From Mytilus edulis (lineage: Eukaryota): 64,000 nt of DNA. The position numbers were made by a program, and so were the translations under genes. The DNA is taken from positions 61,442,001 to 61,506,000 of the forward strand of contig NC_092353.1 in assembly GCF_963676685.1 (NCBI RefSeq), written 5' to 3'. The notes beneath the pieces were generated by a model. The model saw nothing but the letters and a program-made list of their open reading frames with translations. It made no database searches and was not told the DNA's origin. Below, piece by piece: positions 24,423 to 48,571 of this stretch; within the stretch, counting starts at the first letter, position 1; each line of letters starts with the position of its first letter.

Positions 24423-24663
24423 AAAATCTAAGAAGATGTGGTATGCTTGCAAATGAGACAACTCTCTACAAGAGACAATGGAATACGTAGACAGCTCTCT
24501 CACAAGCAAGAAACCATAACTAAAAATATAAGGGCCTACACTACAGGCACGGGGACACATTCAGTATTCACTAGTTCTTCCAATTCTAGTTTTTTTTAGC
24601 CATGGTGTTGTCAGTCTAATAGTTCTCTACCTTACATTTGTTTTTATTTCTTAACTCTTTCAG

Positions 24664-25877
24664 ATGTTGACAGAGAGGCGAGTCCAACATTACCAGTGGA
24701 ATGGGACAACACGGCAGATATTCCAACTTTACACTTTTCATTTATTGTAAACCTACTTCTGCCTAAGCATTTGATATCGAAAAGACACCCAAAAGTAGAA
24801 CAAGAAATTGACAAACTCAATACTAGAGGTCGTCAGCAGTATGGAGAAGATCCGCCATCAAAATACATTGCCGTTGGGAGTAGTGCAGAATGTTACGAAA
24901 TTCCACGAATGATATCAAAAGAACCTCTTAAGATGCCAATAGGTGTTCAACACAGTGACATAGATGTTCTTGTGGCATGGAATTCGCGACGCATTAGGGA
25001 ACTCGACCTTCAAACTTCTGATAAACAGAAAGTTGTTTTAGAAATAGAAGACGTACACCCGGGTTACTGTAGACTGTTTATAAACGATCCAGAATCTGTT
25101 CTTCGGGGAGTTGATCCATCGACTGCAATATGGGTTGAAAAAAGGGGATTTTTTAATGCGAAAAAAGTTAGAGATGATATCAAAACTTTAATGGATCAAA
25201 TAGGTTTCGAGCAATCAACCGATATTTCCAAGTTTATTGTAGATCAGAAAGGTCCAGCAGTTGGACTTGAAGACATCACTGCAAGAACTTTAAAATTGTT
25301 TCAATCGAGTACAAGCTTGCAACATCCTCGACAAGAGATGGTTGCCGCATTACCAATCTTGTGGCCCAAAATTGCAAATAATTGGATGTTTAGACAGAGA
25401 ACAAACAATTGGTTGTCAGATACGTTAATAAAATCTATTGTTGACGAAGGATGCCATGTTGTTCCTGTCTCACATCGACACACCAAACATCCTGACATAG
25501 AATGGAGATTGTCGTTCGCAACGTCAGAAGTAAGGTTAGCTAAAGATGTTGTAACAGATGACCAAAGACAGTGTTATGTATATTTGAAATTACTTCGACA
25601 AGTAAAAATGAAAGGCTTAGATCTCCTCTCTTCCTATCACATGAAGACAGCTTTTCTTTACTCCTGTGAACGACTTCCGACTGAGTGTTGGCATGAAATT
25701 CAAGGAGGATGTATATTATACGTTCTCGATACTTTGATAGCATTTGTAAAAGACCGATGGCTTCCTAGTTATTTCATACCAGAAAATAATCTTCTTGATC
25801 ATCTAACTGAAGATGAATTCAATCATCTTGATATTCTATTAGCTTCAATTCGAACGGACCCAATTTCTCCAGTGTAA
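24664..25877 (+). CDS. cGAS-like receptor / Mab-21 family nucleotidyltransferase domain (exon 2, 5' part)
   Basis: Motifs VGSSAE, SDIDVLV, third acidic residue in QEMV, GCHVVP, EWRLSFATSE, LSSYHMKTAFLY, LPSYFIPENNLL. Strong pyrimidine tract and CAG acceptor upstream. Confidence 0.92.
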
Positions 25878-27698
25878 GGGTTTACAGACACCAACATTAT
25901 TGCAAACCAAAGTGCTGTGCTACCATTTAGACATTTTATTGGCCCAGTTTTAGATGATTTTAGAAGGTTCAAAGTTCACAGGAATAGAGAGGAATCAGCA
26001 AAAGAGTTTATTCATACACTTATTTCATTTGTTTCTGCATTTCTAGTTGATGATAAAGTAGAGGATTCAGTCCATTACTTGGCCGACCTTTACGACTTCC
26101 TTGGAACATGTGCACCAGCGGATTGTTTTAGTAAATATTTATATTCCTTTATTTCACAATGGAAAATAGTAACACAGTGCATCAGGTGTCTTGAGTTTTC
26201 CGTTGAGTTTTATGCAAACAAATATCCGGATATTAGAAATGTGAATCAGTACCTTGGTAACTTTTATCATGCTTACTCATGTCAACATCCGAAGGATTCT
26301 CAAATAAGCCGCCAACTACTTTCAAAGGCAACTGACTATTTCAATCGGTATATACAAGAGAAAGGATTGGTAGACTCTGTCAGTGTCGATTTTGCTCTCT
26401 GTAACTTGGCAGCTGGACGCACCGATATGTGCATTTCTCATTTGAAGGATTATGTCTATAGTAGCTGCGACACCCAAGACAATTATACTAATGTCAACGA
26501 TACAAAAATCATAACATTAGAGAAAACTCTAAGAAAAGATTTAATCAGCCTGGTTGGAGACCCTATTAGAATGATTGTTTTGCCGTCTTTTCCACTTGCT
26601 TTATACCTGTTGTTAGTCGCATACCAAGCCGATAACAACATTAAAGGTTTACCTGATGAAATCTTAGATAAATTTCAACACTACTGTCAGCAATCTAACA
26701 CGTTTTGGAGTAACTACTTACATGGTCTTTCCTTAACACATTTACAACTTTGGGGAGAAGCTGAGGTTGCTTTTCACAAAGCGAATACAATTACCGGATG
26801 TCAGTATTCAAAGTGGAAAGAAATTGCATGTCATATTGAGAATCTGTTATCTAAGGGAAAACATTCAGAAACCATTGAATATATGGAAGATATTTCTACT
26901 AAAGCATCTGGTGCAAGTCGTGATGCTGTGGTTCACACAGTAGCATTTCAGCTCAGTTCATCAAGTAAGGCAGTCCAGTTTACCGATAACCTGGAAGATT
27001 TGAATCTATCAACGTTTATAAATGGAAATCTTGCATGTTTACATTTTGCATCAGCATTTGAGTATCCAGATGAATCAGATGAAAGAATAACTGCTTTAGT
27101 CAGAGCTGAAACATTGTTCTCTACATTCCTATCAGAAATACCGAATGAAGAGTCTGCTACTACGGTGGACTATGCTGCATTTCTTTGTAACCAAGAAAGA
27201 TGGTCGGAAGCGATCGATATTCTAGATTTGTTTCTATCTAAGGCAAATACAAATAAATGTAGCAATTCTTACGGAACTATGGAATATCTCACACTCGATG
27301 ATTTTCTTAAAAAGGAAGTGGATACTCACACTAAAATGGAAGCTCCCTCAAGATCATTTGCCTATTATTATGCTATCAAATGCCTAGTGAAGTTAGGGGA
27401 ACCAGATCAAAAGATAAAAGGTGTCAAAGCTGCATTCAGTAAGTTCTGTACAGAGATTAAAAACAGCAGATCATTCAGTCTTCTTGGATACAGTGAGATG
27501 CTTAGGGAAAACTGGTACAGGGCTGAACATTGGTTTTGCAAAGCTGTTGAAATGGCATGGGACTATACAGCTGCAAAACAAAATTTTAATTTGTGTAAAT
27601 CGAAAAGGTCATCGAATATTAATGAAAAGTATGAGGAGAAATATATTCCTCTCTGTGTAGCAGCTGAATTGAAAGGGATATTGCCATTGCAAATGTAA
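25878..27698 (+). CDS. C-terminal TPR-like helical region of the same cGLR (same frame, after one TAA)
   Basis: 24696 and 25917 are in the same frame and 25878-25916 is open. Helical repeats with TPR-like signatures (WGEAEVAFHKA, WYRAEHWFCKAVEM, YTAAKQNFNLC). Internal duplication. Confidence 0.8.
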   Translation, partial: GFTDTNIIANQSAVLPFRHFIGPVLDDFRRFKVHRNREESAKEFIHTLISFVSAFLVDDKVEDSVHYLADLYDFLGTCAPADCFSKYLYSFISQWKIVTQCIRCLEFSVEFYANKYPDIRNVNQYLGNFYHAYSCQHPKDSQISRQLLSKATDYFNRYIQEKGLVDSVSVDFALCNLAAGRTDMCISHLKDYVYSSCDTQDNYTNVNDTKIITLEKTLRKDLISLVGDPIRMIVLPSFPLALYLLLVAYQADNNIKGLPDEILDKFQHYCQQSNTFWSNYLHGLSLTHLQLWGEAEVAFHKANTITGCQYSKWKEIACHIENLLSKGKHSETIEYMEDISTKASGASRDAVVHTVAFQLSSSSKAVQFTDNLEDLNLSTFINGNLACLHFASAFEYPDESDERITALVRAETLFSTFLSEIPNEESATTVDYAAFLCNQERWSEAIDILDLFLSKANTNKCSNSYGTMEYLTLDDFLKKEVDTHTKMEAPSRSFAYYYAIKCLVKLGEPDQKIKGVKAAFSKFCTEIKNSRSFSLLGYSEMLRENWYRAEHWFCKAVEMAWDYTAAKQNFNLCKSKRSSNINEKYEEKYIPLCVAAELKGILPLQM

Positions 27699-36121: not shown

Positions 36122-37408
36122 CTAAAAATCAGAATTTATTGAAACAAGCTTTCAGCTAAAAATGATTTTATTTATAAACATGATAAATAATAAGATGTGT
36201 TAAGAGTGCTAATGTGACAACTCTTTTATCCAAGGCATAATGTATAAAAAGTTAACAATTATAGGTCGAAGTACAGCCTTCATCACAGCACCTTCACCGT
36301 GTATCATAAGTACAGCGGATATAGGTACTAACCAAGCAGACGTGAGTGATTTTGACCTTACATGGTAACGAAAATCTTTATCAGAAATGTATGATAAAAA
36401 CTTAAACCTAATTTAGGAAATGTTAGCTACATGCACATTGTATGCATAAATGATGAATGCTACATGTAGTTCATACTAAAATATTTATTATTTATAGTGA
36501 AAGAAAAATTAAACCTTAGCCATGGTGTATGTATGGCTAACCCTATTTAGATGATTAGTTTTTATCATAAATTTCTAAGTAATTTCCAGATTTCTTTAAC
36601 CTTAATTCTAGATTCAATATCTACTTTTTCATTTTTATTTGGTATTTTAAAAAACAACTGTGCAGAAGTTGTGTGAAGTATCACTTTTTCTATCTGATGT
36701 TTCCGCCTACCATTGAATATACAATAAGATATAAAATGTACATGTACATGTATGTGACTAATATTAACTGAATCAAAATTAGTTAAATAATACCATGAAT
36801 ACAAAAGAATAATACATGTAAACATGTCTTTGTACATGTATTATTAGGTCAAAGGACACAGTTATTGTCCTTTGGTTTTCATTGTCTATGAATATAGACC
36901 CTATAACTAGAGTGAACAGTGCTTGCAATTTTTTGATACACTTTCCCAATTTCATGAATTTATTTCTTGATATTTAATGCATGAAATATTAAGAAGTAAG
37001 GCATTTAAGGGGATGAAATTACATGTTAAAAAAATTTGGGTGCTGAATCTTTATGTTTTAAAGTAGTGATTTGTTCCAGTTAGAAAAGGTCAAATTTGAT
37101 TATGTCTGAAACTGTCAAACTGAATTTTTGACCCCCTTAACACAGCATTGTCAATATTTTGAGTTAGAGCTAGTAGAAGATTCTATAATTTTGATATAAT
37201 TTGTCCCATTAGTAGTACACTACACTGTAAAAATCTTTTTTAGATACAGCAGGTGTGTTTTTTAAAAAAAAATAATTTATTGTTTAAAAGAAATGCACTA
37301 CGAAATACAATGTACATTGTAACTGTGTTCTCAGGCCTCATGGAATATTGGTACATGTACATTACATATATGTATCTCTAACATGTCTTAACATGCTTAA
37401 TAATATAC

Positions 37409-38279
37409 CTTTTGATGGATTCAAGCAAGTTACTATACTGTTTAAGCCAACTCTAGCAATATAAAGTGTCTTACTAACATACTGATCTATTTTTATTAGT
37501 TGACTAGTACTGATATCAGTATGACCATGATCAGAAGTTATTATAATATTCATGTCATCAAATGAATGTTCATCTATCAGCCTTTTCTTCAGATAGCCTA
37601 AAGTTTTGTCAAGTTTATAAATTATATCTTTAACTTCTTTGCTGTCTGGTCCATGTACATGTGCTACTTCATCTGGTTCTGGAAAGTACAAAACTCCTAA
37701 ATTAATCGGACGAATATTTGATTCATTTTTGGAAAACCATTCAACCAAATGATCAACTCTTTTATTCCAGTTGTATGTGAGGTTATAAATGTAACCACCT
37801 GGAATTACACGTGGCATATATGACTTCATTTCAGCAACGCCACCAGGCCACAAAACAACACCACTATCTCGTGATTGACCTGCTTTGTAATTTGTCACCC
37901 ATATAGGTTCTGATCCAGCGTCAAACCATTTGGACTCAAAATTTTGTCGGTAATTTTCTTCATGGAATGTATCTTGCAAATATGGATCCCAAAAACTGTT
38001 ACTGACTATTCCATGGCTCTCGGGATACAGACCAGTAACAATTGTCATATGATTTGGATATGTTACACTGGGAAAAACATTTCGAATATATTTCACATTT
38101 ACACCTCCTCTTCTAAAAAAGTCAAAATTTGAAATACTCTCCTTGTTTAGGTTGTCAAGGAAATTATATCTCATACCATCCATTGAAATTAATATAAGCT
38201 TAGGTATTTTTACTCCTGTTGACAGACATATTGTTTGAACTGTCAACAGTAAGAATGTCAGAACATCTGCTGTTTTCAT
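37409..38279 (-). CDS. ENPP5: ENPP4/5-like, coding exon 1 (signal peptide and catalytic core)
   Basis: Signal peptide, then ISMDGMR, FPSVTYPNH (catalytic Thr), EPDEVAH, TSDHG. The four exons total 1467 nt = 488 aa + stop. ENPP5 rather than ENPP4 is tentative and rests on TYPNH. Confidence 0.95.
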
Positions 38280-38850
38280 ACTGCTGTTTCACTTTTGGTT
38301 TGGTTTACTGCGAGTGTGGTTGTAACATGTTGAGCTTTATTGAGGAAAGTTACGACTTTATCATTATATATTTTCTCGTTTTTTATTTAAATCCTGTAGC
38401 ATTGTCATATCTATATTTTGTTGAGAAAGCTCTTGGAAACCAACTTGTTGAAATTCGTCTGTTTTCTCTATCGTTCAAAGTCAATTTTCAACTACGTTAA
38501 TTCCTTGTGTAAATACGGTATTTCAAGCTCAGATATAACCTAGAAAATAATATTCTAAATGCTTGTGCGTTCACGGACATTAAAACGATGAAACGTGTCA
38601 AACTCCGGAACCTTTGCACTAAAATCGCACTTTAATATTTCTTGAATTTTTTTAAAAGAAAAAGAAAGCGAGCAATGCTATATTTAGGAAATAATTGATG
38701 CAAGCTATACTTTATAGTATTTTTAACATGGGTACTGTAGGCATTATATTCGTAATTATCTTTGCCCGAGCGATAGCCTTAGGGATAGGCTTAGCCAAGT
38801 TAGGGATATCTTAATAAGATTATACATGTAAAATTGAGAAAATTCGCTAG

Positions 38851-38879: not shown

Positions 38880-39007
38880 TCAGTACAGAGTCGGACTCTT
38901 CTTGAGTGTATAAATGACTTGCTCGTGAAATCATGAGGCCTTCCCTCCTCACTTAATAAAAACTATTTACAGGAAAATTATTTACAAATAAAACTATGTA
39001 CATCTGG

Positions 39008-39256
39008 TGTTATATACCTCTATTTGGTATTTCTGGTTACCGGAAATGTAGGACATAATTTATACTGTTTATTGTATTTTACGGGACTGTATACCTTTTT
39101 TTTTTATGTTTGTCGGCGGCGAACAGTTAGTGTCGTCTGTCACCCATGTGTTTGATAAAATGGCTGTGGAATAAAATTTAGATATCGATATTCAAAAGCG
39201 TGACTTCAATCTCATTAGTCCCCCCAAGACAACAAAAAGGATTGAGGCCAACGACA
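39008..39256 (+). repeat. 5' LTR (249 bp)
   Basis: By eye it differs from the 3' LTR by two substitutions and one T in a homopolymer. Confidence 0.96.
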
Positions 39257-39267
39257 TGGTGGAGGAC
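39257..39267 (+). other. Primer-binding site (TGGTGGAGG, tRNA-Ala-like)
   Basis: Immediately follows the LTR CA and is complementary to ...CCTCCACCA. tRNA identity is tentative. Confidence 0.7.
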
Positions 39268-39635
39268 TTAAAAAGGCTTTTAGCGTAAATATTGCTTTTA
39301 TTTGTGATATAATTTTTGGTGAACATTATTTTTTTTTTGAGAACACGTGGACTGAGTGGACAATTTTGTCAGCGACAAGTCAGCTACATATTTTGATTAG
39401 TATCTCATAATTATTTGGTGACAAAGTATCGCCAGTGCCTGTCGAAATTGTAGGGCTAACAGAGTTTGATTTAGGTGATGTTAATTCTCCAGACAACACT
39501 GCAAATTTTGAACCAGAAATAAATGTGTTATTAGCCGAGGCAAGTCCAATTACATCTACCCCACAACCGTTAAATGTAACAGAAATCCCCACAGAATCGG
39601 TTGATATACCTATTAAGATTCAGACTACTTCAACA

Positions 39636-40670
39636 ATGAGCAAATTAGTCAGGTGTCGTGAATTTTCAGGATACCCCCAAGATAATGCGAAAGGATTTTT
39701 CAGTGAATTTGAATCTTACGCACTTCTCCATGAATTGCCAGAAACAGACAAAAGACGCATTGCAGCATTTCATTTACATCTAAAGGGGCCTGCGTTAACT
39801 TGGTACAATTCTTTGAGTGACGAGTCTAAGAGTTCGTGGATAACAATTTGTGTTTTGTTCAAGGAAAAATATATAAATTTTAGTTGGCAAAGCGCAACAG
39901 TTATAATGGAAAGTGAAATTTTCCAAAACATGGTATTATCTCCGGGTCAGTCGTTAGAAGATTATTTCAGTCAGCTGTCGGAAAAAGCTCAAATATTAAG
40001 AAAGCATGACCACGAGTTAGTAGCAAAATTTATAAGTGGGTTGCCAGAAAAAATGTCGTTTTTTGTCCGTGCTGGTCAACCAGTCGATGCACACCATGCC
40101 TTAACTTCTGCAAAAATGGCGGAAGCCTGTGGGTACAGACAACACGGAGACTCTATAAATGCTCTTAAACATGAAAATAAACATGCACCTCGGCAGCTGC
40201 CAGGAAAATCAAACATTATTGATTCCAACCAGAGCGAGGTTATCCGTGATTTACAAAATCAGGTTGCTGTTCTTACCGACTTAGTTCAGGGTAAACACAA
40301 GGAGCATGTTCAGAGTGAACCATCCCATTCTGATGTTCATGACATTAGGGATCAAATCGGACAGTTAAGCGGTCTGATAACTAGTATGGCAGTCAGGGAA
40401 ATACCCAACAAAGAACCAAAAAGACCTGAAAATACAAGCACGAATTATGCAAATACGTCTCGTTTTGACTCAGCTGAATGTAGGAGATGCAAAGGTCTCG
40501 GTCATTTTCAAAGGGTATGTAACTGGAACGGGTATGGTCAACTTCAACCGTCTAATCAATGCCAACTTTGTAATCAGAATGGCCACATTGCTCAGTCTTG
40601 TACCAAACTGGAGTTTTATGCACAGGGAAACAGGACCAACCCGGGTGTGGGGCACAATCGTCCGGGTTAA
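39636..40670 (+). CDS. gag: Gag with two CCHC zinc knuckles
   Basis: First in-frame ATG at 39636, although the frame is open further upstream. Motifs LKGPALTWY, CRRCKGLGHFQRVC, CQLCNQNGHIAQSC. Confidence 0.92.
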   Translation: MSKLVRCREFSGYPQDNAKGFFSEFESYALLHELPETDKRRIAAFHLHLKGPALTWYNSLSDESKSSWITICVLFKEKYINFSWQSATVIMESEIFQNMVLSPGQSLEDYFSQLSEKAQILRKHDHELVAKFISGLPEKMSFFVRAGQPVDAHHALTSAKMAEACGYRQHGDSINALKHENKHAPRQLPGKSNIIDSNQSEVIRDLQNQVAVLTDLVQGKHKEHVQSEPSHSDVHDIRDQIGQLSGLITSMAVREIPNKEPKRPENTSTNYANTSRFDSAECRRCKGLGHFQRVCNWNGYGQLQPSNQCQLCNQNGHIAQSCTKLEFYAQGNRTNPGVGHNRPG

Positions 40671-41917
40671 CTTCGTCTATTGGTGCCGATTTTGATGAAA
40701 ATGCAACTAAGGATAAATTTTTGTACATAACTGTTTTATTTGGTGATCTAAGAATAGCTGCATTAGTTGATACAGGGAGCTCTATCAATGTCATTTCTAA
40801 ATCTTTGTATGATTCGATATCCGATCGTCATAAACTTTATTTTGAGCAACTAAGTGAATCGGAAATTCGATTAGCCAACAACGATGAAATCAGAATTAAC
40901 GGAATATCCAAACTTCAAGCCACAATTCATCAGAAAAATGAAATTATTGAAACTTATATCATTCCCAAAACATCTCATCCTTTGATTCTCGGTACTGAAT
41001 ATTTACGAGAAAATAAAATTGTTTTAGATTTTAGTGATTTTAGTTGTAATCAGAGGACTGTGCCGGTTAAAACAGGTAAGAGGATAGAACTTGAACCGAA
41101 TACAGAATACTTAACTTTTGGGAAGTTACCAAATTACGTTACAGTCGGATTGCAAGGGATATGCGTAAACAGCAAATTTTCAGTTAACCACAAGTTTTTA
41201 GTTGCCAAATCTTTAGTTGTCGTTCCTGTCAATCGCAAAGTTCCGATTAAATTATTGAATGCTAGTAATGTGAAAATAACGATTCCAAAAGGCAAAAATA
41301 TTGCTGAATTTTCAACATTATCAAATGAGTACACCTATGTTGCAATGTCTGAAAAATCCGAGATACCCGAAGTGCAGAATATTCAGTTGGTTGCTAATGA
41401 AAATGGACTGCGGACCGATATTTCCGAACAGCAATGTGACATTACAGACAGTCCCGACAGGCAAGAAATTTTGACCAAGATAAAGACAGATTTTGATTTA
41501 TCCGATCATTTAACACACGATCAAAAATCGGAATTAGCTGAATGTTTGTTAGATAATCTTGATTTATTTGTTACGAAAGAAAATCCAAACCTTGGATATA
41601 CACATTTAGTGGAGCATAAAATACATCTGAAGCCAAATGCTGTTGGTAAACATCATAAGCCGTACAGGTTACCCCCTTACAAACGTGAGGTTTTGCGTGA
41701 GCAACTGGATAACTTGCTTGAACAGGGAATAGTTGTGCCAGTTAGTGAACAAGAGGAGCTACCCATTACAAGTCCGATAGTATTAGTCACAAAGCGAAAT
41801 GAAGCGTCGAATAGTAAGACTTCAACTCAAAGTTATAGGTTTGTTTGTGATTTTAGACATTTAAACGCGCAAACGGAAGACTTTAAATATATGTTATACC
41901 AAACTTACAGGAACTGA
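40598..41917 (+). CDS. pol: Pol 5' part: aspartic protease, linker, start of RT
   Basis: ALVDTGSS, LILG, SPIVLVTK, YRFVCDFRHLN. Broken at about 41890 by a 2-nt (AT) insertion. Confidence 0.92.
   Translation: MYQTGVLCTGKQDQPGCGAQSSGLTSSIGADFDENATKDKFLYITVLFGDLRIAALVDTGSSINVISKSLYDSISDRHKLYFEQLSESEIRLANNDEIRINGISKLQATIHQKNEIIETYIIPKTSHPLILGTEYLRENKIVLDFSDFSCNQRTVPVKTGKRIELEPNTEYLTFGKLPNYVTVGLQGICVNSKFSVNHKFLVAKSLVVVPVNRKVPIKLLNASNVKITIPKGKNIAEFSTLSNEYTYVAMSEKSEIPEVQNIQLVANENGLRTDISEQQCDITDSPDRQEILTKIKTDFDLSDHLTHDQKSELAECLLDNLDLFVTKENPNLGYTHLVEHKIHLKPNAVGKHHKPYRLPPYKREVLREQLDNLLEQGIVVPVSEQEELPITSPIVLVTKRNEASNSKTSTQSYRFVCDFRHLNAQTEDFKYMLYQTYRN
40625..40670 (+). promoter_or_regulatory. -1 programmed ribosomal frameshift signal (gag-pol)
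   Basis: Slippery G GGA AAC in the gag frame, followed 6 nt later by stem AACCCGG...CCGGGTT. pol is in the -1 frame. Confidence 0.85.
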
Positions 41918-44709
41918 CGGAATCCTTTGCTGAAATAGTACCAAATTATATAACTTCGATAGATTTATCTTCCGGTTTTTTTCAGATGGGCATATCCGCC
42001 GAATCGTCAAGATATACCGCTTTCAACACATGTTTTGGAACGTACAAGTTTTTAAGGCTGCCAATGGGGTTAAAGACGGCACCTAACACATTTCAGCTTT
42101 TAATGGACAAGGTACTGCGTGGTCTAAAATTCAGAACTTGTTTGTGCTATTTAGATGACGTATTGATCTGCTCTGAAACCTTTGAAAAACATTTAGACGA
42201 TATCAAAGAAATCTTTAAACGATTTCGAGATGCAGGACTAAAACTGGGACAGAAAAAATGCCATTTTGCAAGTGAGACGTGTATTTTTCTTGGACACGAG
42301 ATTTCTAAACATGGGATAAGACCCCCAAAAGATCGAGTGAAGGCTATTGTCGACTTTCCGGCACCACAGAATATAAAACAACTTCGTCGCACAATTGGAT
42401 TATTTAACTGGTTTAAAAAGTTTATACCAAATTTCAGTGCTATAATTAGTCCACTCACTAAACTCCTGAAGAAAAATCAAAAATTTGAATGGAAAATTGA
42501 ACAATCTACAGCATTTCAAAATCTTAAAACTCATCTTGTTAATACTGATAATCTCAGTTTCCCCCGTTTCGATTTACCGTTTATATTGGCTGTGGATACT
42601 TCATCAAAAGGAATAGGGTACATGCTTTATCAGAAGGACCCAACAAAGGAAAAACCAAATATCATTCGTTTCGGATCAAAGTCTTTATCACGATGGCAGC
42701 AGTCGTATGGTCCTACGAAATTGGAGTTGTTGGGAATGGTCACTAGTATTCTTGACTGTGCGGACTATTTAAGGGGTACACAATTTATCGTGGAGTGCGA
42801 CCACCAAGCACTCCAACCATTGTTTATGAAGCAATTCAAAGGAGCTATTTATGAGCGTTGGCTTGCCATTCTCCAGCAATTTACATTTGAAATTCAATAT
42901 AAGCCTGCAGAACAAATGAAAGTCGCTGACGCGCTCTCAAGATGTGAAAATCCCGAAAACATTCCGATCGAAAGCCCTGCAGAAGATGATCCGTTTTTCC
43001 CCTTGGTAACAGAAAATACAGGAGAAATACGTTTACCCGGTGGAGTGAAATTTGTTGATTTATTTGAATCGAATGATAATACGGACGTTGTTGTACAGGC
43101 TATAGACATGGTAGCTGACAAGCACATCGATTTATACAATGTAGAAACGGACGAGCATAACTCGCTAAATGATCCATATGATGCCGATACGGACGAGTCA
43201 GACTCTAATGTACACAATCGCAAAAAGAAATTTGCCAGAAATAATCAGAACGTTGAACAACTTGCTAATACTTTGCGCGATTTTCAAGTTGGTGCAAATA
43301 CCTCTAACATCAAAAAGTTACAACGGAAAGATAGCGATTTAAGGAAAATTATTGCATATTTAGAAGATGATGTTTTGCCAGATTCACAAAAAGAATCTCG
43401 CCGTATTTTATTGGAGTCGTGTGAGTTCATTTTAGTTGACGATGTGTTATATCACCGTAGAAAGGCAAAATCAGAAAGGACAAAGAGCATGAGTAAATTT
43501 CAACTTGTTATTCCTAGACAATTGATTTCGCAAATTTTAAAAATTGCTCATGACTCCCCATTAGGTGGACACAGTGGAATTCAGAATACTTTAGACTCTG
43601 TTAGAGAGCGTTATTATTTTGCGCGAATGGGTAAAATAATCAGTGAATACGTGCAGTCTTGCCATGAGTGCCAGTCACGTAAAGTTAGCAATTTAAAAAC
43701 GAAAGCAAAAATAGTAGCTTATCCTACGCCTAGTGAACCATTTCAAGTATGGCAAATGGACATTTTTGGACCACTTGTTTCATCAAATAATGCCAATACA
43801 TACGTTTTTACAGCAGTTGATGCTTTCAGTAATTTCTTGTTTGCTGTGCCATTTCGAAATAACGATGCAATATCAGTTTCTCAGGCAATTTTCAATTTTT
43901 TCTGTAATTTTGGTGTGTGTAACACGGTTATTTCAGACCAAGGATCAGAATTTATTGGCAAATGTACAATGGAAGTGTGCAAAATGTTGAATGTAGAGCA
44001 AGAATTTACACCTAGTATGATGCATCACTGTTTGGGTCGCTGTGAACGAACGCATCGGACCTTAGCGGAGCGTTTAACGCCATATGTTTTAGACAATAAA
44101 CAATGGGAAGAAATGCTTCCTGGAATAGTATTCTCAATCAATAGTTGTGTAAATTCAGGATCAAAATACTCTGCTTTTGAAATTGTCTACGGAAAAAGGC
44201 CAAATTTTCCGTTATCGCCTTCTTACATAGTTGATTTTAAAGATATTCCGAAAGATGTAAAAACCTATGTTGAGAATTTGAATGCCCGTTTGAACATTAT
44301 TCGAGAGCATGTAAAATTGAATACCCTTGTTGCTCAACGGAAAATGGTAGAAACCGAAAATAAAAATGCACATGAACTAGATTTGACCGTAGGCGACAAT
44401 GTTTATTTATCCAGAGAGCCCGTTGGACAAGGCAGGAAATTTCAGCATATTTATGATGGACCGTTTACTGTAACATGTCTTCCGAGTGCACATCTAGTTA
44501 TTTTAAGAGATCCAACAGGAAAGAGAAATTTTCGCCGTCCCGTGCACATCAATAGATTAAAGCTTGCACATATACGGGTGCCCTTACCAGCACCTTATTT
44601 TACCAACAAATCGACGAAAGTGAAAATACTAGCAGTAAGTCGGATAATAGTTCTAGCTCCGTTGACAGGGACACCTCGGAGAATTCTAAGTCTATATCTA
44701 CAAATGTGA
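41893..44709 (+). CDS. pol: Pol 3' part: RT, RNase H, integrase
   Basis: LPMGLKTAP, YLDD, AVDTSS, ECDHQAL, VADALSR, HHCC zinc motif, MDIFGP, ISDQGSEF, CERTHRT, GPF. Confidence 0.95.
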   Translation, partial: VIPNLQELTESFAEIVPNYITSIDLSSGFFQMGISAESSRYTAFNTCFGTYKFLRLPMGLKTAPNTFQLLMDKVLRGLKFRTCLCYLDDVLICSETFEKHLDDIKEIFKRFRDAGLKLGQKKCHFASETCIFLGHEISKHGIRPPKDRVKAIVDFPAPQNIKQLRRTIGLFNWFKKFIPNFSAIISPLTKLLKKNQKFEWKIEQSTAFQNLKTHLVNTDNLSFPRFDLPFILAVDTSSKGIGYMLYQKDPTKEKPNIIRFGSKSLSRWQQSYGPTKLELLGMVTSILDCADYLRGTQFIVECDHQALQPLFMKQFKGAIYERWLAILQQFTFEIQYKPAEQMKVADALSRCENPENIPIESPAEDDPFFPLVTENTGEIRLPGGVKFVDLFESNDNTDVVVQAIDMVADKHIDLYNVETDEHNSLNDPYDADTDESDSNVHNRKKKFARNNQNVEQLANTLRDFQVGANTSNIKKLQRKDSDLRKIIAYLEDDVLPDSQKESRRILLESCEFILVDDVLYHRRKAKSERTKSMSKFQLVIPRQLISQILKIAHDSPLGGHSGIQNTLDSVRERYYFARMGKIISEYVQSCHECQSRKVSNLKTKAKIVAYPTPSEPFQVWQMDIFGPLVSSNNANTYVFTAVDAFSNFLFAVPFRNNDAISVSQAIFNFFCNFGVCNTVISDQGSEFIGKCTMEVCKMLNVEQEFTPSMMHHCLGRCERTHRTLAERLTPYVLDNKQWEEMLPGIVFSINSCVNSGSKYSAFEIVYGKRPNFPLSPSYIVDFKDIPKDVKTYVENLNARLNIIREHVKLNTLVAQRKMVETENKNAHELDLTVGDNVYLSREPVGQGRKFQHIYDGPFTVTCLPSAHLVILRDPTGKRNFRRPVHINRLKLAHIRVPLPAPYFTNKSTKVKILAVSRIIVLAPLTGTPRRILSLYLQM

Positions 44710-45032
44710 CGACAGAAAGTGAAGCCCTAGACACAGATGTGGTTTCTCAACATGATACTACGAATTTAAATAGACTAAGAAGGAATATTCAGAAGCCTGT
44801 GCGGTACCGTGATGATAACTTTATCGACCCCGATAAAATAGTGGATTCATGTGAAAACAATCAATTGAAAGTAAAACGTATTCTTACCAAGCGAAAAGAC
44901 GGTGCAAATTTCGTTTACTTGATTCAGAAAGTAGGAGAACCAGCACAGAATGCGATTTGGCTCCCTTTATCAAAATTACCACCCAAAGCACAAACCTTGC
45001 TACTTTCAAGACCACCGCCGTTGATTCAGTAG
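44608..45032 (+). CDS. Frameshifted Pol C-terminal tail with chromodomain-like module
   Basis: Frame is open from about 44608. LKVKRILTKRKDGANFVYLIQKVGEPAQNAIWLP resembles the chromodomain pattern VxxIL...YLxKWxG....TW.P. Confidence 0.6.
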
Positions 45033-45055
45033 TTATATGTTTAGTAAACTTTCGC

Positions 45056-45664
45056 ATGGTGATGATTGCATCGCCAAACCATTAGTTCAAAGTCAAATAT
45101 GTCATATATTGCTCTAGTTATTCAAATGAAACAATCAGAGTGCCGTAGATGAAATTTGAGAAATCAGTTTAATTCCTTGTTTTGGTGATGATTGCATCGC
45201 TAAACAGACAATGCGTGCGTTATCAGTAAAAGTGATGATTGCATCGCTTAACTGAAATTACACTTCGTTTAAAAATAGCATTGATTGGATGTCTTACAAA
45301 ATTTAGTGGCGAGCTTTATAAAGTGATGATTGCATCGCTCAATTTATTTACACTTCGTTAAGCAATACCTATGGTTGGACTTTTGAGGAAGATAAATATA
45401 TTTATATATATATATATATATTGCTGTTTTGGTGATGATTGCATCGCTAAACTAACATAACATTCGATTGTGGGATTTAGACAGTTTATATAAACTATGC
45501 AGGAGGACATAATCTTCTTGATTTGTGACGTTTTTGGTGATGATTGCATCGCTAAACTTACATACTTTAGATCGCGAGATGTGAGCAGTTGCAGTTATAC
45601 CCTGATTTTCAGCTATGGACTATGCAGAAGGACATAATCGTTTTTGGTGATGATAGCATCGCTG
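45056..45664 (+). repeat. Array of seven conserved GTGATG-ATTG-CATCGC hairpins in the Gypsy 3' untranslated region
   Basis: Copies at about 45058, 45184, 45232, 45323, 45431, 45536 and 45646 (last has loop ATAG). Confidence 0.92.
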
Positions 45665-46378
45665 TTATTGCATTGTACTAATGTCAAATGTACTTTTATT
45701 TACTGTTATTTTCGTATGATATTACGATTGATGGTTGTTATTTTTTCTTAAAGGTATGCATTTCTATCATATGTTACATTCAAAAAGTATATATATCATG
45801 AAGCTAGATAAGGCATTATTATGAACTAGATGTGTTACATGCAACAGAATTGAAAAGTTTTTCAAATACTTGCTAAAGTTTTTCTCAGTTGAATTTATAA
45901 CGGTGTACAGAGTGTTAGTGTCTGCTAGAGTGAAAACCTGTACATTTTCTATAACATTGTTTATTGAGACTGAGAGTGTATGTATACATGTATATCAAAA
46001 TTATTTCATGTGAACTTTTGGCTAGTTATATAAGAGTGTGTGATAGTGTTATACTAGATTGTGTTATTTAAAATAATTGTATTAAGAGTTTCGGGTCTCT
46101 ACTAGCATCACTGTGATTAGAGCACAAATTGTCACCAATAATAGCAAACTTAAGAGTTGAGTCAACTTTATGAAAAGTTTTATTCATCCTATATATGATA
46201 TAGTATATATGCAAGTACAAACAAAACTGTGTCCATGTACGGAGTTAGTAATGCCAGAGTGAGAAAGGGTGTATACAAATTTGAAATGTATTTTTTTTAA
46301 AATTATTATTATTGTATTATGTTATATTGCTGTCTGCATTTCCAGTGACCAGACCAAAATTTTTCAAATTTTATATTT

Positions 46379-46388
46379 GGGCGGGGGA
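46379..46388 (+). other. Polypurine tract
   Basis: GGGCGGGGGA directly before the 3' LTR. Confidence 0.8.
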
Positions 46389-46636
46389 TGTTATATACCT
46401 CTATTTGGTATTTCTGGTTACCGGAAATGTAGGACATAATTTGTACTGTTTATTGTATTTTACGGGACTGTATACCTTTTTTTTTATGTTTGTCGGCGGC
46501 GAACAGTTAGTGTCGTCTGTCACCCATGTGTTTGATAAAATGGCTGTGGAATAAAATTTAGATATCGATATTCAAAAGCGTGACTTCAATCTCATTAGTC
46601 CCCCCAAGACAACAAAAAGGACTGAGGCCAACGACA
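46389..46636 (+). repeat. 3' LTR (248 bp)
   Basis: Direct repeat of 39008-39256. Confidence 0.96.
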
Positions 46637-48571
46637 CTGGGGTCAAAGGAGATCTAGGTGTGTGAAGTTATAAGGACTCGGGGTGACGAAATTTTAAATC
46701 TAAATTTCGTCATTGTAATAACGAAGTAAAAGTGAAGTTACTGAAAGTAGAAATGACCACCAAACGTTGGTCTACATGACTTTCTTTATACATAGAAAAC
46801 AATCCTCACTAGACCAATATTCTTATCCGATGACTTGATATTACTTCAGCTCATTGGCCGAAGACTTAACAGTGGCGTAGCTGGGTCATTTTTACGAGTA
46901 CGCCCGAACCTTGGCGAAGGGTCTGAGGGGGTGCCAACCGCTCAATGTCAAAGCACCTGCTGGTAGTGGTTTCGAGGGGACGAAGTCCCCGAAAGCTATC
47001 GAGTTATCGAGAATGAGATCTACCATTCCTGTCAGTAAAAATTCATTAATAGCAACATACTTTTGAATCTAATTGGTTTATTTTTTATGTTTAATTATGA
47101 AATATGTTTAACTTATCATCCGTCATCGTGTTAAACTGGAAGCTATAGTGGTCATTGGTTTTAGAGAAAACGTGCAAACCAATATTACTTTCAAATATGT
47201 TTAAAGGGAGCCGTGAGTGAGCATACAATCGACAAAAGCACCTTTTAATGGACATGAAAATTCATTTCTAACAGGTGCAATATAAAAATATTTCATGACA
47301 ATCTATGAAGTATTATAAATTGATCATGAAAAAACAATTAATTGCGTACAGAAAGTTCGGCTATGAGTAAAGATCAGAAAATGTCAGGTGCTGGTGGGTC
47401 CTGATTCTGTGCTGGTGAGTTTGTTTACATTGTATCAGAACGGCAATAAAACGACTGTTTTGTTTTGTTGCTTAATTTTTCTCTGATGCGTCATAAGTAC
47501 CATGCAAAGTATATTACAACAATATTATATTGCAAAAGTCGTGCAAGTTCGTTAAACGGAATTGTCCTGACGCTGTGCTGGTGATAAGAAAAACGGTCCT
47601 GGTTCTGTGCTCCTATGTCCTGGTTCTGTGCCTTTATATTTTAGTTAAAAGTGGCATATATTCAAGATCATTGATGCTGTACTGTTATTGACTAATTAAC
47701 TGTTGTCTGCTTTCTTGAAATTGACATTGTTGTGAATCTGTTTACTGTTATTATGAGAGAAAAAAATACCCCTATTTTTTATATTTTTTTTAAATTAACT
47801 GTAATCTAAAACCCTTCTTGCCCCCTTTTAAGATAAGAAAATATGTTTACGATTTTCGGGATTACGATAATTTTGCAAGATCACCAAAATACGTTGTAAT
47901 TTATACAATACTTATATAAAGTAGATGATGTGGTATGTTAGATCGAGGTTACAGTGAAAGTTTTAAGCTTGGAATAGTTTCCCGTAAGATTTAAAAGTTG
48001 TATTTTTAAAGAAAAATGTATCGTATAGCTATTAAGAATCACTTGCTGTATCTGTAAGATTTTTTCAACATAATTTTTTTGTCTGAACGGTTATCAGGTA
48101 TTTTTTTTTCGAAAGTTCGATAGAACACTAAAAGAAAATTCACTATTTTATGAAGGGCAGACTAGAATATGTCAATTTCAAACATTAAAATATCTCGTAG
48201 CTTCATACTACCAATTGAGTATAAAAAAGTATATAAGTTTAAAAAAGAAATTCTTAGATTAAACACCTACATTTAACTTTAAAAGGTCATAACAGTTTAA
48301 AACAATACAAATCTACACACACAAAAAAACTGGCTTAATTTCAACTGGTTATCAACCCGATTCGCTATAAGATCATATATAAGCTCACCAGTGTCGAGGG
48401 GTCGTGTGAGGTTCGTGTATTGTCTTGGCGTCCGCAATTACAAAAAGATCTTTTCTGAAATTACTTGACCAAATGTTACCAAGTGATTTTTTAAGAGTGA
48501 ATCTAGGAAAAACAATATTCATCAACAAACATGACCACTGTCTGTTAAAAGGTATTCGAGTTTTTAGTTAC

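Follow-up and report, generated by a model that had tools for sequence, protein, structure and literature searches.

A young Gypsy element at 39008-46636 of the window (the whole 64,000-nt stretch of DNA analysed here) carries an array of seven short hairpins between the end of pol and the polypurine tract. The array is almost certainly a functional RNA element of some kind, and comparison of copies and related families shows that the stem-loops are kept for their shape in the transcript, with selection apparently acting at the level of structure on the sense strand. As to what reads them, the account we favour, while holding it at somewhat less than even confidence, is that the hairpins would be a multivalent docking tag for ORF0, a predicted esterase-fold protein common to this Gypsy clade and to mussel LINEs.

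The window element and its seven-hairpin array

The host is a Ty3/Gypsy LTR retrotransposon on the forward strand, as its LTRs, target duplication, PBS, polypurine tract (PPT) and gag followed by PR-RT-RH-IN attest. The 5' LTR (39008-39256, with TG...CA ends) and the 3' LTR (46389-46636) are 99% identical and are flanked by a 4-bp target duplication, CTGG, at 39004-39007 and 46637-46640. A primer-binding-site-like sequence that starts with TGG lies at 39257-39270, its TGGTGG-R-G start being common to the families and non-coding elements examined, and the PPT lies at 46379-46388. The gag frame (39411-40670) encodes Retrotrans_gag and two CCHC knuckles and is 5'-truncated in this copy; pol (40574-45032, stop at 45030-45032) encodes PR, RT, RNase H and integrase in the -1 frame relative to gag, ends in a tail that looks chromodomain-like by eye, and is split over three frames here, with an unbroken pol frame in several other copies of the family. 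A leader deletion, which also took the 5' end of gag, has left a single relic leader hairpin (39418-39432; 3-nt loop, one mismatch), where six other gag-pol copies have three. Relatives of its integrase at 92-100% identity are from Mytilus. RNA reads from four runs, with 28-68 reads each (about 1x or less), gave no splice joints or ends within the element, and their strands were mixed.

The seven 16-nt cores reported in the first-pass annotation are all present on the forward strand: core 1 at 45059-45074, 26 nt past the pol stop, followed by cores at 45185-45200, 45232-45247, 45323-45338, 45432-45447, 45537-45552 and 45647-45662. The first six have the loop ATTG and the last has ATAG. Each 30-nt unit folds into the tetraloop stem that had been described (z -2.2 to -4.8), and the flanks vary yet keep pairing, adding 1-4 extra pairs per core; for one unit, the antisense strand folds at -3.4 versus -10.3 kcal/mol. 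The supposedly constant U-G wobble holds within the window's family, whereas related families have U-A. The 671-nt region as a whole is not unusually stable (z -1.4), and its MFE structure contains the hairpin at 7/7 cores. The spacers, 31-110 nt long, are 53-82% alike across the aligned columns of a permissive global alignment while the cores are fixed; hence the array was expanded by duplication, with up to eight cores per copy in the window's family. The exact core has 121 matches in the 1.37-Gb genome, nearly all clustered among the matches listed, versus none for a reversed control pattern, and the array is thus not a product of chance.

A second 3' UTR motif, AAGAG-N-TCTCT, is present in single copy on the same strand at 46084-46100, about 280 nt upstream of the PPT; found in 7 of 11 family representatives (hairpin-less family J included) and in 6 of 8 non-coding elements, it is possibly a more basic cis signal. 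The leader of the window element has the E-box-like ACACGTGG at 39343-39350, as do leaders of families C, E and J. Elsewhere in the window, a Mab-21/cGAS-like nucleotidyltransferase frame and, past one stop and still in frame, a 606-aa frame with no good Pfam match occupy 24600-27698 of the forward strand, and a nucleotide pyrophosphatase/phosphodiesterase exon (37362-38288) lies on the reverse strand about 720 nt from the 5' LTR.

The hairpin is conserved as a structure

When the window array was aligned to 20 other copies, mismatches amounted to 22/1389 in stems (1.6%) versus 552/8051 in spacers (6.9%), with 15/463 in loops. Counted as variable sites, the stem-spacer comparison is 17/84 versus 194/556 (Fisher p 0.009, which is indicative because the copies are related). 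Cores no more conserved than spacers were to have spoken against the multivalent RNA cis-element first proposed; stems proved about four times more conserved, and core conservation and covariation together support that proposal.

The family survey comprised 60 loci fetched through the pol tail or the core, 53 of them orientable by pol. All motif evidence is from one genome, and hairpin counts are lower bounds, obtained from patterns and fetched loci, with the pattern-match loci taken among the matches listed. A 6-bp hairpin with the consensus GUG-RNR / 3-5-nt loop / YNY-CRY is found in eight of ten related families. The stem base reads G-C(U), U-G(A), G-C, and a lower stem with a bulged pyrimidine is added in several families; the loop, which can have 3 or 5 nt, is the most variable part. 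A descriptor composed after viewing 19 of the 60 loci gave 134 perfect matches in sense versus 0 in antisense over 43,460 nt of 3' UTR, while in 157,940 coding nt the counts were 15 sense and 2 antisense. Matches fell in 46 of the 53 loci oriented by pol.

In a set of 49 distinct hairpins, pairing is kept in 97.6% of cells (G-U in 56 of 294, versus 7 non-pairs), and both sides change at three of the pairs. Covariation is 0.487, compared with 0.279 for shuffled sets (0/500) and at most 0.175 in slid registers. Depending on the family, pair 5 is U-A, G-C or A-U, and pair 6 is G-C, A-U or U-A. Since these hairpins had been selected partly on pairing, covariation was retested on hairpins anchored by sequence alone: pairs 5 and 6 were each paired in 21 of 24 recurrent types (singletons excluded; 0/20000 permutations). 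Compensatory changes, whose search the first-pass annotation had advised, are therefore present in both tests. Its argument from sense-strand wobbles to RNA-level selection likewise agrees with the sense-only G-U pairs, the strand bias of the descriptor and the covariation.

A neutral minisatellite, its palindrome maintained by template-switch repair or conversion, would account for spacers that record duplication and for a unit number that differs among copies, and tandem arrays are common in LTR elements according to the portion of PMC7004042 consulted. Such a tract is nevertheless scarcely credible here, given stems four times more conserved than spacers, wobbles that are not repaired into perfect palindromes, and a motif that recurs in non-homologous contexts, including single copies in unrelated non-coding elements; the decayed minisatellite envisaged at the outset is ruled out by core conservation over spacers together with covariation. 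The other DNA-level proposal was a cluster of sites bound as DNA by either a transcription factor or an insulator protein, comparable to the Su(Hw) array that Drosophila gypsy carries in its untranslated region. The core is indeed near-palindromic, and its reverse strand contains CGATGCAA, which we take to be a C/EBP-ATF4 site; a literature search for CGATGCAA in that capacity found no support among the matches listed. However, positions 5-6 covary with their partners between families, destroying the CGATGCAA 8-mer; G-U cells far outnumber non-pairs (56 to 7); and matches confined to the sense strand (134 to 0) are at odds with fixed double-strand recognition of the Su(Hw) type. We consider this explanation very improbable.

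No Rfam 15 family matches the hairpin at gathering score (best E 8 in 44900-46700; 0 matches in 8 loci), and the open literature searched listed no description, though Repbase/Dfam entries could annotate the element; within those bounds, it is not a described element, as had been supposed. The iron-responsive element is defined by a CAGUGN hexaloop and the histone stem-loop by GGYYYU-UYUM-ARRRCC; the hairpin departs from both consensus sequences and has no Rfam match to either.

Several related Gypsy families carry two hairpin clusters and ORF0

An integrase tree of 36 rows separates the families at about 48-60% identity, the branch to H being long and the deeper splits lacking resolution. The hairpin is found in families A (the window's family), B, C, D, E, F, G and H, and is absent from the sister families I and J. 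It forms clusters at two sites, before gag and after pol, and in families B, D, E, F and G an additional frame, ORF0, sits between the PBS and gag, followed by the second hairpin cluster. A model trained on the 3' clusters alone detects the 5' clusters, with E-values from 7e-6 to 0.018 and two weaker matches, and also the hairpins of non-coding elements described below.

Hairpins and ORF0 are not always found in the same copy. The window copy and seven family-A gag-pol copies fetched upstream are without ORF0, and three leader hairpins are retained in all but one of the seven. Hairpins without ORF0 in cis are also seen in family C (3 copies) and in one copy of E; a C-type ORF0 partner was looked for and not found. 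Families I and J have ORF0 in 0/5 copies and the hairpin in neither leader nor 3' UTR, and since they are sister families, this joint absence amounts to one evolutionary event. Among other hosts, viral contigs gave no match, and metagenomes gave two loci, one near-identical and one a 52%-identical relative (L092) with no ORF0 match and no hairpin.

Several further observations concern these families. The Gag of I and J (L153, L155) has three CCHC knuckles, and that of the seven hairpin families examined has two. Two family-A cores (L071:5529-5690, L076) occur in a 146-bp duplication within a 7-kb repeat that matches neither the window element nor its pol tail. Family F deletion derivatives (L066, L083) have leader-type hairpins near the pol tail, 354 nt before its end, and family G (L055, L056, L058, L079) has a second repeated pair of short 3' UTR motifs about 500-680 nt past pol.

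ORF0 and an ORF0-only partner of the window's family

Through copies that match the array alone, we reached a 2.65-kb partner element of family A, with the LTRs and 3' UTR of that family, one 240-aa ORF and neither gag nor pol. Copies are found at L003:293-2953, L004, L005, L007 and L026, with older ones at L072, L073 and L074, and those in L003 and L007 have their own 4-bp target duplications; family F has a similar ORF0-only-like derivative (L096). This suggests that the window's family is a two-part retrotransposon. Splicing was considered as the origin of the ORF0-less and ORF0-only forms and tentatively rejected, as the junctions look deletion-like by eye, one of them with microhomology.

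Going by its conserved residues and a structure model, ORF0 is an SGNH/GDSL esterase-fold protein with an intact triad. The match to Lipase_GDSL has an E of 4.5e-4, under the cut-off, and a PDB sequence search with the ORF0 profile gave no match. Nevertheless, Ser-Asp-His (S32, D215, H218) is invariant in 36 sequences, with the block III Asn replaced by Cys, and the model (pLDDT 95) has GDSL hydrolases as its best structural matches. The protein has a pI of 7.8-10.3 and a K/R-rich beta-hairpin insert ahead of the DGxH block (26% K/R versus 14%). Variants shared by the ORF0-only copies comprise 9 synonymous and 2 non-synonymous changes (pN/pS 0.05), compared with 0.10 for an integrase control and 0.53 for private variants; by this measure ORF0 is under purifying selection in the ORF0-only copies, although the shared variants may predate the split. 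The Gypsy ORF0s form one clade (SH-aLRT 99) inside the LINE ORF0s in a quick tree of 55 rows, and most Atlas clusters resembling ORF0 are eukaryotic, with Mollusca and Annelida commonest.

Proteins of this fold are known both in retroelements and as RNA binders. SGNH/GDSL esterase ORFs occur in ZfL2-1, CR1 and RTEX ORF1p (PMC3905857) and in ORF3 of the rotifer Vesta (PMC5408684), and, as far as the consulted parts of both papers go, they resemble ORF0 in having an SGNH domain with catalytic residues that is exchanged between element classes. ORF0 differs in standing alone as an ORF ahead of gag or ORF1, flanked by hairpin arrays; no mention of a stem, stem-loop or hairpin was found in those parts. 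The SGNH-fold OSK domain of Oskar binds RNA, as stated in the section of PMC5785220 consulted, while the ZfL2-1 esterase on its own did not bind oligo(A)27 in a stable complex, according to the corresponding passage of PMC3905857. OSK (PDB 5a4a) aligns with the ORF0 model over 162 residues (Z 14.3, rmsd 2.5), ranking 23rd against a top Z of 17.3; it is without catalytic residues, whereas ORF0 has them, so that the loss expected of an Oskar-type pseudo-hydrolase is not seen.

Many LINEs with ORF0 carry hairpin arrays

The 47 other ORF0 loci are LINE-like, with endonuclease and RT in the three tested and the remainder assigned by ORF layout. In many of them ORF0 is followed by a hairpin array of their own with as many as 15 copies, and some have further arrays ahead of ORF0 or past ORF2 (L110 and L133 have them both after ORF0 and after ORF2). 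Their stems mostly begin G-C, U-G(A), G-C like those of Gypsy, with variants carrying C-A, A-U or mismatched A-A. In the genome, a LINE-type pattern has 249 matches versus 1 for its control, and 16 of its clusters were fetched: 6 lie after ORF0, 4 after ORF2, 3 before ORF1, the stretch fetched containing no ORF0, and 3 could not be placed. Differently shaped hairpins, with a 4-bp stem or an A-A mismatch, follow ORF0 in L105:1630-2465, L110, L111, L129 and L215.

A descriptor of the shared GUR stem, short and composed after both Gypsy and LINE hairpins had been seen, matches within 350 nt past the ORF0 stop in 7/7 Gypsy loci and in 24/47 LINE loci (4.9 expected; 16/47 in antisense; loci not independent), leaving 23/47 without a match in that interval. 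An earlier, more general descriptor (84 sense versus 66 antisense matches) was dropped, since its tolerance of C-A left the antisense control non-independent. The Gypsy hairpin model does not detect the LINE hairpins (best E 0.21), and for this reason we regard their common descent as likely rather than as shown. Of 20 LINE loci selected by endonuclease, 19 have neither ORF0 nor array, most being 5'-truncated and their 3' UTRs lying outside the set; two apparently full-length ORF0-less LINEs have no 5' hairpins. The sole ORF0-bearing locus among the 20 has a hairpin, by eye, about 15 nt past its ORF0 stop.

Non-coding elements retain the hairpins

The core pattern of the E/F/G type has 210 matches in the genome versus 11 for its control. 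Twenty-four orphan matches chosen outside known arrays resolved into 6 pieces of known families, 13 small LTR elements and 5 matches without element context. The 13 passengers form two families of 1.4-2.5-kb LTR elements that, around the hairpin, match the autonomous families at neither the protein nor the nucleotide level; their LTRs are 100% identical in 5/13, and the longest Met-ORF is 32-66 aa in the 8 checked. One family joins two hairpin types from different autonomous families, and the passengers include single hairpin copies with lower stems. As they have no downstream ORF to regulate, translation control cannot explain the hairpins, while a role in RNA fate can. The five lone matches (L204, L209-L212) are possibly host sites or chance.

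Packaging signals usually sit just ahead of gag, where one of the two clusters lies, and the first-pass annotation had proposed Gag packaging among its candidate roles. The hairpins could act as packaging signals present in several copies and recognised by the knuckles or capsid of the Gag that the element itself encodes, with the LINE arrays separate or merely reflecting ancestral use: Gag has two knuckles in all seven hairpin families examined and three in both hairpin-less ones. On the other hand, nucleocapsid proteins usually read RNA loops, and the loop is this hairpin's most variable part; moreover, Gag-less LINEs that share ORF0 bear look-alike arrays in matching positions. That non-autonomous LTR elements moved in trans retain the hairpins is as expected of a packaging signal (PMC4558846, consulted in part). 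Gag as the reader is thus disfavoured and in our estimate unlikely.

A conserved host RNA-binding protein might instead be recruited, to export, localise or stabilise polycistronic ORF0-bearing transcripts or to shield them from nonsense-mediated decay. One stem base is kept although Gag is about 35-56% and ORF0 30-49% identical, and it is common to LTR and LINE classes; clusters begin tens of nt from stop codons; and the 5 of 24 orphan matches without element context might be host sites. The persistence of hairpins without ORF0 in cis also fits such a protein better than it fits reading by ORF0. Against this, sister families I and J manage without hairpins. In addition, none lie past the gag stop, where most termination would occur if a frameshift is required for pol, and their absence there speaks against protection from decay. 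We rate a host reader as fairly unlikely, though above Gag.

Discussion

The docking-tag reading, in which ORF0 itself is the partner, is favoured because it fits the cross-class distribution, a basic protein with a K/R-rich insert, and RNA binding by the SGNH fold in Oskar. It draws support from the co-occurrence of ORF0 and hairpins in families and their joint absence in I and J. This co-occurrence could, however, be plain linkage within a captured cassette; the Gag of I and J also differs in its knuckles, besides the absence of ORF0 and hairpins; and the ORF0 triad is intact, unlike that of Oskar.

As we envisage it, ORF0 would recognise the stem by its G-C/U-G face, the element RNA would be coated by several copies of the protein, and the coat would steer that RNA to a membrane or particle-assembly step, as a pair of the Rev/RRE or MS2-operator kind. 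In the case of the window's family, the 2.65-kb ORF0-only partner would provide ORF0 in trans and itself depend on borrowed Gag-Pol. More tentatively still, ORF0 and its cognate hairpin may constitute a portable protein-RNA module, passed between LINEs and the Gypsy lineage. Such a module would mark genomic RNA for transport or assembly and would be exploited by non-coding parasites, and it may have allowed the window's family to divide into gag-pol and ORF0 halves that complement each other in trans.

Several known systems are similar in part. In the Rev/RRE pairs of complex retroviruses, a small basic Arg/Lys-rich accessory protein meets a multivalent structured RNA site; ORF0 and the array would likewise combine a basic accessory protein, an Arg/Lys-rich segment and multivalent structured RNA, binding by ORF0 being putative, whereas ORF0 has an SGNH hydrolase fold with an intact triad and its putative sites are separate 16-nt hairpins. 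The MS2 operator is an RNA-virus hairpin of the packaging-signal type. STNV has multi-copy degenerate packaging signals (PMC6475782, in the part consulted), and with RNA-virus packaging signals and retroelement Psi (PMC4558846, likewise in part) the array shares short multi-copy hairpins whose structure is kept and which non-autonomous elements retain. It differs in having its identity in the stem rather than the loop, clusters flanking the coding region on both sides, similar arrays in LINEs that have no Gag, and a partner that is a candidate only. Like the tandem repeats in LTR-retrotransposon UTRs covered by the consulted part of PMC7004042, the array is untranslated, variable in number and duplication-grown; unlike these and the gypsy Su(Hw) sites, it conserves just a 16-nt structured core that covaries across families.

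Taken together, our results describe a previously undescribed cis-RNA motif with clean natural covariation. The hairpin is also a candidate ligand for a question that PMC3905857, in the portion consulted, leaves open, namely how esterase-type retroelement proteins without RNA-binding domains contact and join their RNA. Packaging or routing signals are rarely identifiable in non-autonomous LTR elements, and here a candidate is explicit. If the proposed pairing is true, a 16-nt hairpin and its 240-aa binder would make a compact MS2-like tag, and a module common to LTR and non-LTR elements, possibly with a bipartite retrotransposon, would be new.
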